From the IMG/VR virus record IMGVR_UViG_3300034095_000254: 64,000 nt of DNA, one strand, 5' to 3'. The position numbers and the translations under genes are program-made. Source of the stretch: a virus. The notes beneath the pieces were generated by a model. That model saw nothing but the letters and a program-made list of their open reading frames with translations. It did not search any database and was not told the origin of the DNA. This document shows, one piece after another, positions 2,234 to 22,756 of the stretch (position 1 is the stretch's first letter; each line of letters begins with the position of its first letter).

Positions 2234-2500
2234 TTATTTTTCGAAAACTGCAATGATAAACTCTTCTTTAATCATTGCTCTTTGTACATCACCAATTTTC
2301 ACTGGAGATGCTTTAGCCCAATCTATCAAAACAACATCATCAATTTTAACATCAGTTACATCTGGACCAACTGCAAGAACAGTTGCCTTTGCTGTATTTA
2401 AAGGACTGCGAATACCTTCAATAATAATACCAGATTCAGTTTTATCTTCTTTTTTATTCTCTGCGACCAGTACCTGCGTCTTCAATGGCAATACATTCAT
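2234..2500 (-). CDS. groES: Co-chaperonin GroES (Cpn10)
   Basis: PLKTQVLV, TESGIII, ATVLAVGPDV, EEFIIAV. Confidence 0.85.
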   Translation of the reverse strand: MNVLPLKTQVLVAENKKEDKTESGIIIEGIRSPLNTAKATVLAVGPDVTDVKIDDVVLIDWAKASPVKIGDVQRAMIKEEFIIAVFEK

Positions 2501-2524
2501 TATTAAATCCCTATGTTATAAAAT

Positions 2525-2832
2525 TAGTGGATGGTTATTCTGTTACGAGGAAACCATCCGAAACCCTAAGCAGTGTTTAGGCTGCTAATGCGAACTGTGC
2601 GTCGTTTGCGTTTACGGTTTTTTACTTTTTACGACTCTCTGTGTCGTGCTGTCCACTCATTTACTTATTGCCCTGTCGAAACCTAGTCACCCCCATCAAA
2701 AGTATTTTAGTATGCACTTAATCCAGAGGTGCAACTTTAACGCACATTGGCTGACTAAAATACTTTTGGTGGAGGTGGGGAGAATCGAACTCCCGTCCAG
2801 AACACCTTTCTCTTTGCTTCATACAGCAATAA
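2525..2832 (-). ncRNA. ssrA: Circularly permuted (two-piece) tmRNA
   Basis: Acceptor piece ends GGACGGGAGTTCGATTCTCCCCACCTCCACCA (CCA at 2767); coding piece starts GGGGGTGACTAGGTTTCGAC at 2694; G3:U70 pair; tag ORF ANDAQFALAA* at 2609-2577; outer ends approximate. Confidence 0.92.
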
Positions 2833-2837
2833 CCTAC

Positions 2838-2866
2838 ATTATACATTATATTTAGTTACAAGTCAA
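2838..2866 (-). promoter_or_regulatory. Sigma70-like promoter for tmRNA with embedded late box
   Basis: TTGACT-17-TATAAT; CTAAATA at 2849-2855 inside the spacer. Confidence 0.8.
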
Positions 2867-21343: not shown

Positions 21344-21372
21344 ATTATACATCAAACAATCTTGCAAGTCAA
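21344..21372 (-). promoter_or_regulatory. Internal sigma70-like promoter in tRNA array
   Basis: TTGACT-17-TATAAT. Confidence 0.8.
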
Positions 21373-21447
21373 TGGTGGGCTGACTGTGAATTGAACACAG
21401 ACTCAATGAATTATGAGTTCACTGCTTTACCATTAAGCTACCAGCCC
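21373..21447 (-). tRNA. tRNA(CAT), probably Ile2 (lysidine)
   Basis: Loop CTCATAA, GGGC acceptor; third CAT tRNA in array. Confidence 0.75.
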
Positions 21448-21452
21448 ATGTT

Positions 21453-21539
21453 TGGCGGAAGATACAGGAATCGAACCTGTCAGCCCATTTCTGAACGGAA
21501 GTTTAGCAAACTTCTGTCGCACCTTGCAACGCATCTTCC
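21453..21539 (-). tRNA. tRNA-Ser(GCT)
   Basis: Loop TTGCTAA, long variable arm, G73. Confidence 0.9.
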
Positions 21540-21676
21540 AATTCTTTAATCCTATTTGCTGCTTCTTCTAGCAAATCCGATATTCTATCAGGCTTACCTT
21601 CTTGAACAGATTTTCTACTTTGTATTTGTCTACGAATTTCAGCACGCTTTTGTAAACGATAAACTAAATCATCCAT
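21503..21676 (-). CDS. Hypothetical protein overlapping tRNA-Ser(GCT)
   Basis: AAGGAG RBS, MDDLVYRLQKRAEIRRQI...DLLEEAANRI; stop in the tRNA anticodon loop. Confidence 0.7.
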   Translation of the reverse strand: MDDLVYRLQKRAEIRRQIQSRKSVQEGKPDRISDLLEEAANRIKELEDALQGATEVC

Positions 21677-21694
21677 AACATTCTCCTTATATTT

Positions 21695-21769
21695 TGGTGC
21701 GCCATGATGGAATCGAACCACCATCCTGAGTTTCGAAGACTCTAATTCTATCCGTTGAACTAATGACGC
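21695..21769 (-). tRNA. tRNA-Arg(TCG)
   Basis: Loop CTTCGAA, A20, CCA. Confidence 0.9.
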
Positions 21770-21775
21770 AAAACT

Positions 21776-21850
21776 TGGTACCTCGTGACAGATTCGAACT
21801 GCCGACCTTCTCCGTGTAAAGGAGACATTCTACCACTGAAATAACGAGGC
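21776..21850 (-). tRNA. tRNA-Val(TAC)
   Basis: Loop TTTACAC, CCA. Confidence 0.92.
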
Positions 21851-21858
21851 ACATAATA

Positions 21859-21950
21859 TGGCGGAAGACAGAGGAGTCGAACCCCATCCGATTTCTCAGA
21901 ACCCAGTTTTCAAGGCTGGTCGCAGGACCAACCCCGCTGCATTATCTTCC
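21859..21950 (-). tRNA. tRNA-Ser(TGA)
   Basis: Loop CTTGAAA, variable arm, G73; atypical D-arm. Confidence 0.87.
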
Positions 21951-21957
21951 ATAACTT

Positions 21958-22032
21958 TGGTTGCCAATAGTGGTAACGATCCACTCACCTATCGCTTATC
22001 AAGCGATTGCTCTACCTCTGAGCTAATTGGCA
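21958..22032 (-). tRNA. tRNA-Ile(GAT)
   Basis: Loop TTGATAA; atypical T-loop ATCGTTA. Confidence 0.87.
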
Positions 22033-22039
22033 ATAATCT

Positions 22040-22115
22040 TGGTGCTGCCTAGTAGAATCGAACTACTTTCCGAGGATCTTCAATCCCCTGCTATGACCAC
22101 ATCAGCTAAAGCAGC
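22040..22115 (-). tRNA. tRNA-Phe(GAA)
   Basis: Loop TTGAAGA, CCA. Confidence 0.9.
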
Positions 22116-22125
22116 AAGTATTCTT

Positions 22126-22200
22126 TGGGGTGTCGTATGAGAATTGAACTCATGATGACGGAATCACAATCCGTAGTTTTACCACTAAACTAACAACACC
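22126..22200 (-). tRNA. tRNA-His(GTG)
   Basis: Loop TTGTGAT, G-1:C73. Confidence 0.92.
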
Positions 22201-22205
22201 ATAAT

Positions 22206-22279
22206 TGGTAGGAGCACAGAGAATTGAACTCTGGTTAATAGGTTAAAAGCCTACTACTTTACCACTAAGTTATACTCCC
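22206..22279 (-). tRNA. tRNA-Lys(TTT)
   Basis: Loop CTTTTAA, CCA. Confidence 0.92.
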
Positions 22280-22345
22280 AAACAGATGCGCACTACATGG
22301 ACATGAGCCCACTAGTCACCTTTTGAGTTAGAGTGCGCATTTGTT
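22280..22345 (-). ncRNA. Stem-closed spacer RNA between tRNA-Gln and tRNA-Lys
   Basis: AAACAGATGCGCACT / AGTGCGCATTTGTTT inverted repeat fills the whole spacer. Confidence 0.5.
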
Positions 22346-22419
22346 TGGCAGGGGATACAAGAATCGAACTTGTAATCTCGGAATCAAAATCCGATGTTAT
22401 ACCACTTAACTAATCCCCA
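22346..22419 (-). tRNA. tRNA-Gln(TTG)
   Basis: Loop TTTTGAT, G73, CCA; first tRNA of the array. Confidence 0.92.
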
Positions 22420-22467
22420 ACAGAATCCCGAATTGTAAAAGAACAATATTACTAGCACGATGGCTAT

Positions 22468-22506
22468 AAAACAAAAAACCCTCTGGACTTTCATCTCAGA
22501 GGGTTT
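22468..22506 (-). terminator. Intrinsic terminator (attenuator) upstream of tRNA array
   Basis: AAACCCTCTG-11nt-CAGAGGGTTT followed by TTTGTTTT. Confidence 0.85.
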
Positions 22507-22548
22507 GGGTAAGTAGACTGGTGTCAGTTACTTCTTATCCAAACCCTC
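22499..22548 (-). promoter_or_regulatory. Antiterminator hairpin, mutually exclusive with terminator
   Basis: GAGGGTTTGGATAAG (22548-22534) pairs 14/15 with CTTACCCAAACCCTC (22513-22499), which includes the terminator 5' arm. Confidence 0.8.
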
Positions 22549-22653
22549 GGCATCCTCAATCGCATTATATCCAAATGATGTGCGTGAGCATGTCCAGCCA
22601 CTTAATAGCGGGAGATGTCTTTGCATTTGTTTGGATATCATTTTCGATTTCAT
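22528..22653 (-). CDS. Putative attenuator leader peptide (41 aa, leaderless)
   Basis: MKSKMISKQMQRHLPLLSGWTCSRTSFGYNAIEDAEGLDKK*; 19 amino acids, 31 distinct codons; ATG 6 nt after TATAAT; last codons cover antiterminator 5' arm. Confidence 0.75.
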   Translation of the reverse strand: MKSKMISKQMQRHLPLLSGWTCSRTSFGYNAIEDAEGLDKK

Positions 22654-22659
22654 GATTGA

Positions 22660-22688
22660 ATTATACTACACCTTTGATTATTTGTCAA
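22660..22688 (-). promoter_or_regulatory. Consensus sigma70 promoter of leader/tRNA operon
   Basis: TTGACA-17-TATAAT-6-ATG. Confidence 0.88.
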
Positions 22689-22756
22689 GCACTATCTGAA
22701 ATAACCTTACATCTTGTAGGGTTTTCTTTCAGACAGTAATCTATTTAGTCACTATT

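Follow-up and report, generated by a model that had tools for sequence, protein, structure and literature searches.

We identified, in a 64,000-nt stretch of DNA from an uncultured large phage (IMG/VR record IMGVR_UViG_3300034095_000254; hereafter, the window), what appears to be a ribosome-mediated transcription attenuator placed before the phage tRNA array. Its leader ORF is a near-complete "pangram" of the genetic code, and we propose that the element senses the whole decoding pool. We put the probability of this reading at roughly 0.7. The anatomy of the element, its conservation, the constraint on its composition and its linkage to tRNA arrays can all be observed directly in the window and its relatives (see Table 1 for coordinates). 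An earlier note on the window had suggested a ribosome-coupled attenuator responsive to the whole tRNA pool, and the structures, relatives and composition presented here speak in favor of that suggestion.

Table 1. Predicted features of the leader locus and of the tRNA genes behind it, in window coordinates
Feature	Position	Strand	Details
dCMP deaminase gene, upstream neighbor	23206-22757	-	PHROG 174
Upstream hairpin	22703-22723	-	AACCCTAC-AAGAT-GTAAGGTT, 14 nt upstream of the -35 hexamer; same scan as promoter
Sigma-70-type promoter	22660-22688	-	TTGACA 22688-22683, 17-nt spacer, TATAAT 22665-22660; promoter scan 12/12
Leader ORF, leaderless, 41 codons	22528-22653	-	ATG at 22653, stop TAA 22530-22528
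Small conserved hairpin within the ORF	22598-22611	-	CCGCU-AUUA-AGUGG, codons Pro-Leu-Leu-Ser-Gly; RNAalifold consensus
Antiterminator hairpin	22499-22548	-	5' arm 22548-22534 (last codons), 3' arm 22513-22499; stop codon in upper stem and loop
Intrinsic terminator	22468-22506	-	AAACCCTCTG, 11-nt loop, CAGAGGGTTT, then U-run TTTTTTGTTTT
Spacer from terminator to tRNA-Gln, 48 nt	22420-22467	-	No sigma-70-like promoter in the promoter scan
tRNA-Gln, first of 27 tRNAs	22419-22346	-	
First tRNA block	21373-22419	-	Gln, Lys, His, Phe, Ile, Ser(UGA), Val, Arg(UCG), Ser(GCU), Met
tRNA-Ser(UGA), 27th tRNA	21863-21950	-	Type II, long variable arm, encoded CCA; missed by ARAGORN; sub-threshold Rfam tRNA-Sec-like match

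The promoter (TTGACA-17-TATAAT), the ATG and the 41-codon ORF had been described in the earlier note, and on recheck both their coordinates and the peptide were exact. The A of the ATG is the seventh base after the -10 hexamer on the minus strand, so the leader mRNA should begin at or next to its AUG, without a Shine-Dalgarno sequence. In relatives, the upstream hairpin adjoins the leader promoter whichever gene precedes it, and it recurs before a second promoter where one is present. Stem-loops of this type (CCCTAC-N5-GTAGGG) lie approximately 11-14 nt upstream of the -35 hexamer and are found before the inserted promoters of loci L043, L044, L058 and L059 as well. Together, hairpin and promoter can be likened to the stem-loop-plus-early-promoter cassettes of T4-type phages. 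The hairpin probably insulates the leader promoter from upstream transcription; alternatively, it could be an operator. The small hairpin within the ORF carries compensatory changes in the RNAalifold alignment, where one pair is AU in 26 sequences, GU in 11 and GC in 3, and another is CG in 32 and UA in 3. This hairpin is a candidate RNA polymerase pause site and may synchronize ribosome and polymerase.

We collected relatives of the locus from IMG/VR, 80 loci through the deaminase protein and 60 more through an exact terminator pattern, and added a few metagenome contigs through a looser pattern. The looser pattern mostly matched unrelated terminators in the metagenomes, with at least five new family members among the matches listed. 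A profile search with the leader peptide located the ORF in approximately 100 related phage contigs or loci. Among these, 62 coding sequences are unique, as are 60 complete peptides, which are 32-46 aa long. Wherever downstream sequence is present, the next feature after the leader is the first tRNA of a large array. This first tRNA is a tRNA-Gln in all but one locus, at a distance of 69-326 nt from the leader. The distance from the leader to the upstream dCMP deaminase gene ranges from 30 to 2172 nt, and the intervening genes come and go. Because adjacency to the tRNAs is constant and the distance to the deaminase is variable, we conclude that the element is linked to the tRNA array it precedes, and not to the gene upstream of it.

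A search of isolated phage genomes gave a match for tRNA-Gln alone, indicating that the phage has no close cultured relatives. A large neighboring protein gave only weak matches, to Melnitz-like and cyanophage myoviruses. Just two called homologues of the leader peptide were present in a large protein database, because ORFs this small are seldom annotated. We found no comparable ORF-plus-terminator in relatives that lack the leader and whose arrays start with tRNA-Met or tRNA-Thr. Six leader-less relatives (L066, L067, L069, L072, L079 and L080) carry a conserved ORF of 56-57 residues (MNWLKYSGCNITLKLNPFHWR...) and no terminator switch; this ORF occupies approximately positions 420-593 of the 600 nt preceding the first tRNA-Met, and ends 5-7 nt before that tRNA.

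The 3' half of the element contains two competing helices. The earlier note had paired the last codons of the leader with a downstream segment overlapping an intrinsic terminator, and we verified the coordinates of both the pairing and the overlap. The segment AAACCCTC is common to the 3' arm of the antiterminator and the 5' arm of the terminator; across relatives the overlap spans 8-11 bases, and the segment shared by both helices reads AAA(A)CCCTC. In the minimum-energy structure that RNAfold predicted for the window, the 22548/22499 hairpin is present and the terminator is not (z = -3.3 and -4.4). Since this hairpin takes the 5' arm of the terminator, the two structures are mutually exclusive. 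Such a pair of alternatives had been predicted, and folding recovered it both in the window and in relatives.

Both helices are maintained across the family. In relatives, the terminator consists of a 10-11-bp stem plus UUUUUUGUUUU, and the end of its U-run lies 59-68 nt past the leader stop codon in all elements. Its alignment cells are 96.1% paired, 25 cells have changed on both sides across 4 pairs, and it is the terminator that RNAalifold returns as the consensus structure. The antiterminator has 93.5% paired cells over 50 sequences, versus 62-73% when the register is slid by one, and its variants include matched TTTGG/CCAAA and TTTTGG/CCAAAA forms. ORF, antiterminator and terminator are kept together in the relatives, as expected if they form one device: a terminator without the other two occurs in none of the 62 unique elements.

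The energetics of the two helices bear on how the switch would be thrown. Taken alone, the antiterminator has a median dG of -23.3 kcal/mol and the terminator one of -17.8 kcal/mol. The antiterminator is the more stable helix in 61 of the 61 relatives measured and is also transcribed first, and the full minimum-energy fold switches between both states among homologues. The terminator thus always loses unless the competing arm is masked, an arrangement that is sensible only if something masks that arm; the ribosome is the one conserved candidate. In all 62 elements, the 5' arm of the antiterminator (arm 1) is made of the last 5-8 codons of the ORF, and the stop codon is located 15-24 nt inside the helix. 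Of the 62 leaders, 60 have used each of their amino-acid kinds at least once by the start of arm 1. Arm 1 is closely preceded by the only Asp codon, at a distance of one codon, and by Glu, at a distance of about four. If a ribosome reaches the full 10 nt beyond its A site, a stall at Asp or Glu would open the base of the antiterminator and might go unsensed. The spacing of frameshift signals suggests a single-stranded requirement of 4-6 nt, with which stalls at Asp and Glu would still be sensed. We also considered a T-box riboswitch and rejected it: a search of the leader (22460-22690) with Rfam models at E up to 1 returned no match, and no specifier loop or T-box was recognized.

For a ribosome to act on arm 1, the leader ORF has to be translated. 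All 62 unique elements keep the frame open, despite approximately 30% divergence at each codon position. A promoter scoring at least 9 ends shortly before the ATG in 54 of the 62, by 6 nt (39 elements), 7 nt (10) or 10 nt (5). Most of the remaining elements have no such promoter and show a hairpin followed by AAGGAA at Shine-Dalgarno distance. The existence of two start solutions, one leaderless and one with AAGGAA, in combination with a frame that is always open, favors a translated ORF over a non-coding RNA. We infer that the leader ORF is translated and that its translation is coupled to transcription.

We next turn to what the ORF encodes. The peptide in the window contains 19 kinds of amino acid, the missing one being Val. 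To count codons by the tRNAs that read them, we defined 25 decoding classes matching the 27 tRNAs of the window array. The leader ORF samples 24 of these 25 classes, with Val again the missing class. Among 100,000 random 41-codon windows drawn from the long ORFs of the phage itself, the mean was 17.6 classes and none reached 24. The window contains 193 ATG ORFs of 30-50 codons, and 24 classes are reached by just two of them, the leader and an ORF that runs antisense to tRNA genes. The presence of 19 amino-acid kinds in one peptide is less unusual (P of about 0.056 from random windows of the phage's own ORFs). The weight of the composition evidence accordingly comes from the relatives, and not from the kind count of the window peptide.

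All 60 unique peptides contain 19 or 20 kinds of amino acid, and 38 of them contain all 20, some within 37-38 residues. Random windows of the phage's own ORFs have a mean of approximately 16 kinds, and the probability of all 20 is 0.002-0.015 depending on length. We controlled for relatedness by permutation, shuffling residues within alignment columns, which keeps site preferences and breaks complementarity within each sequence. Under this permutation the mean number of kinds was 18.29 +/- 0.10, compared with 19.63 observed, and full 20-kind sets numbered 7.6 (maximum 16), compared with 38 observed; for both statistics, 0 of 2000 permutations reached the observed value. The outcome was the same with representatives only (0 of 5000 permutations each for 22, 16 or 8 sequences below 70%, 60% or 50% identity). 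Its visible cause is that single-copy residues relocate between columns. Cys, which makes up 0.9% of the phage proteome, is present in exactly one copy in 57 of 60 peptides and is distributed over 10 alignment columns. Tyr and His are each present exactly once in 59 of 60 peptides, over 7 and 4 columns, respectively. Trp occurs exactly once in 60 of 60, always in the same column. The five additional metagenome peptides have 19, 19, 20, 20 and 19 kinds.

Completeness extends to amino acids whose codons are split between boxes. Across the 62 unique coding sequences, Leu is represented by CTN in 62 and by TTR in 62, Ser by TCN in 62 and AGY in 59, Arg by CGN in 60 and AGR in 54, Ile by ATY in 61 and ATA in 56, and Gly by GGY in 62 and GGR in 53. 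For Arg and Ile, there is usually exactly one codon from each box. Decoding-class coverage is 24 or 25 in 47 of 62 leaders, with all 25 in 11. Of the 60 peptides, 18 lack Val, that of the window among them, although the array has a tRNA-Val. No internal Met codon is present in 21 of 62 leaders, Cys is absent from 2 of 60 peptides and from 3 of the 5 new metagenome peptides, and elsewhere AGR, ATA or GGR is sometimes missing.

This conserved composition is carried by a weakly constrained sequence. Measured over the same pairs of genomes, the leader has a pN/pS of 0.78 and the deaminase one of 0.27. Relative to the deaminase, the leader is faster in non-synonymous change (0.26 vs 0.135) and slower in synonymous change (pS 0.335 vs 0.50). 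AlphaFold predicted no fold for the leader peptide (pLDDT 59.5, pTM 0.12, no secondary structure), and searches of Pfam and PHROGs returned no family match. Residues L14, P15 and W20 are invariant and a GFGK tail is common. The invariant residues suggest a constraint beyond composition, which could lie in the RNA structure or in the nascent chain. Overall, the pattern is the one expected of a codon-read leader with an RNA-structure overlay, and not that of a folded micro-protein. It had been predicted that codon diversity would be conserved over sequence; 19-20 kinds throughout, rare residues that relocate and a pN/pS of 0.78 agree well with that prediction.

Behind the terminator, the array encodes a tRNA for each of the 25 decoding classes. 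The next consensus promoter in the window is only at 21372, so the ten tRNAs from Gln to Met would depend on read-through of the terminator. Among 57 relatives scanned for sigma-70-type promoters, 38 have none past the terminator and ahead of the first tRNA, and there the gap from U-run to tRNA is 28-49 nt. The other 19 do have a sigma-70-like promoter in front of tRNA-Gln and behind the terminator, frequently preceded by a stem-loop of its own. The scan covered promoters of the sigma-70 type only. A weak promoter over the U-run (TTGTTT, 17 nt, TAATAT) was below the scan threshold; we discarded it, as the closest relatives do not preserve its -10 hexamer. The earlier note had cautioned that internal promoters at 21372, 21082 and 17769 bypass the element for distal tRNAs, and these promoters are present. 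Given a second promoter in a third of relatives and internal promoters here, the element would modulate the array and is neither a strict gate nor its sole control.

Three further features of this phage deserve mention. A motif, GTTCTTTWAMAATTYGSGAYTC, is located directly upstream of tRNA-Gln (22420-22445, minus strand) and is conserved in all relatives, even past an inserted second promoter; it may serve the first tRNA as a processing or 5'-leader signal. A 73-codon ORF (21503-21724, minus strand) fills the gap between tRNA-Arg(UCG) and tRNA-Ser(GCU), overlapping the ends of both tRNAs. The same phage also has a permuted (two-piece) tmRNA gene (2486-2859, minus strand) with the tag ANDAQFALAA, and thus possesses both a ribosome-rescue RNA and a putative stall sensor.

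We infer the direction of the switch, and its physiological signal, from the arrangement of these parts. Transcription would start on the ATG or a few bases from it, and a ribosome would load once the 5' end emerges. If the approximately 40 codons are decoded without delay, the ribosome would arrive at the stop codon inside the antiterminator hairpin and cover its 5' arm. AAACCCTC would then be free, the terminator would form, and transcription would halt 48 nt short of tRNA-Gln. If an aminoacyl-tRNA is scarce at any codon, the ribosome would linger, the antiterminator, being made first and more stable, would form, and polymerase would enter the tRNA genes. Nearly all amino acids are represented by one codon or a small number of codons, as are both halves of the split Leu, Ser, Arg, Ile and Gly boxes, so the leader would report on the whole decoding pool. 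The signal could be (i) a lost tRNA, (ii) an uncharged tRNA, or (iii) a ribosome slowed by codons that the host seldom uses. One possible use, which we consider speculative, is counter-defense: an anticodon nuclease or tRNA-depleting immunity (of the PrrC, RloC, PARIS, Schlafen or retron type) might remove one tRNA, ribosomes would stall on the leader, and a complete replacement set of tRNAs would be induced.

We weighed the attenuator against other explanations of the same locus. Promoter, ORF and terminator form a self-contained unit, as would be expected of an ordinary small gene whose 41-residue product works in trans, with a host tRNA enzyme or nuclease as one conceivable target. The promoter and terminator would then be the gene's own, the hairpin would merely stabilize the 3' end of the mRNA, and the tRNAs would come from leak-through transcription or have promoters elsewhere. 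Trans-acting leader peptides do exist, peTrpL being one (PMC7298713), and both the invariant L14, P15 and W20 with the common GFGK tail and the separate tRNA promoter after the element in 19 of 57 relatives fit this explanation. However, the peptide evolves unlike the neighboring enzyme (0.78 vs 0.27 in pN/pS) and has neither a confident AlphaFold fold nor a Pfam or PHROG match, and on these grounds we rejected a folded trans-acting micro-protein. The wandering of one-copy Cys, Tyr and His over 4-10 columns fits a constraint on composition, not a fold or a binding site. A small gene also leaves unexplained a terminator that always loses to the hairpin upstream of it unless the coding arm is masked, and the tRNAs of 38 of 57 relatives show no other promoter of the sigma-70 type. 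We therefore regard a small gene as unlikely.

It is also conceivable that the attenuator hardware is as we describe and that it senses general translation capacity (ribosome availability, host shut-off or ribosome-targeting toxins), not particular aminoacyl-tRNAs. Any failure to reach arm 1 has the same structural outcome, and the untranslated default is read-through, both of which suit such a sensor. It would need no codon content, yet completeness in amino acids and in split boxes is actively maintained, and the genes under control are tRNAs; we find this version quite improbable. Lastly, the transcript could be a non-coding small RNA of approximately 186 nt, with a frame that is open only incidentally to the structured RNA. 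We initially considered this explanation for the strong fold (z = -4.4) and the conserved 3' half; the slower change at synonymous sites than in the neighboring gene (pS 0.335 vs 0.50) is in line with it, and attenuator RNAs can work as sRNAs (PMC6614838). Against it stand a frame kept open in every element at approximately 30% divergence at all codon positions, an ATG fixed at the transcript start or behind a Shine-Dalgarno sequence, composition statistics that are sensible solely for a translated frame, and the lack of an Rfam match. The frame, the start signals and the composition constraint led us to abandon the sRNA, which we now consider very improbable.

We return to the whole-pool attenuator and compare it with known systems. 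Its hardware is that of classical leader-peptide attenuation, as in trp, his, leu and pheA and in the multivalent ilvGMEDA and thr leaders. Like trpL, hisL, leuL and pheL of E. coli and Salmonella, it combines a short translated leader ORF with an intrinsic terminator and an overlapping antiterminator, and the position of the ribosome would choose the structure, a stall giving read-through and smooth translation giving termination. Those leaders repeat the codons of one amino acid, whereas the phage leader has about one codon for each of 24-25 decoding classes; they precede bacterial biosynthetic enzymes, whereas the phage leader precedes phage tRNA genes. The phage element also consists of just two competing helices and has no 1:2 anti-antiterminator, so its untranslated default would be read-through, and its mRNA, unlike theirs, is predicted to be leaderless. 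Mixed codons allow a single leader to respond to several amino acids in ilvGMEDA (Ile, Leu and Val) and thrL (Thr and Ile). These sample two or three related amino acids in runs, in contrast to the phage family, which samples all twenty, mostly with single codons and with split isoacceptor boxes apart.

Control of decoding genes by the state of the tRNA pool, through a terminator and antiterminator, is also found in the pheST attenuator and in the T-box leaders of aminoacyl-tRNA synthetase genes. In contrast to the phage leader, pheST responds to Phe alone, T-box RNAs lack an ORF and recognize uncharged tRNA by direct binding, and neither regulates tRNA genes. The predicted start resembles that of the lambda cI mRNA from P_RM, which is leaderless, with the A of the AUG as its first base and without a Shine-Dalgarno sequence. 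We know of no attenuation role for leaderless mRNAs such as that of cI. Full-text literature searching turned up no account of tRNA genes under attenuation, or of a leader covering all amino acids. The phage element is set apart by the proposed sensing of the whole code and regulation of tRNA genes, the phage as owner, the two-helix design with read-through as default, and the leaderless start.

The purpose of phage tRNAs, and how they are controlled, is a long-standing open question. Proposed reasons for carrying them include codon compensation, sustaining translation during host decay, and escape from tRNA-cleaving defenses (PMC10264068, PMC11464382). If our reading is true, the phage gauges decoding speed over the whole code and supplies tRNAs on demand, and if the counter-defense idea also holds, phage tRNAs would be inducible and not constitutive. 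Classical attenuation, which senses one amino acid and controls biosynthetic genes, would be extended to the entire tRNA pool and to tRNA genes. The element would amount to a compact, portable, sigma-70-driven sensor of translation elongation. For this uncultured large phage, the sequence suggests that the 27-tRNA array is probably expressed only when some codon is decoded slowly.
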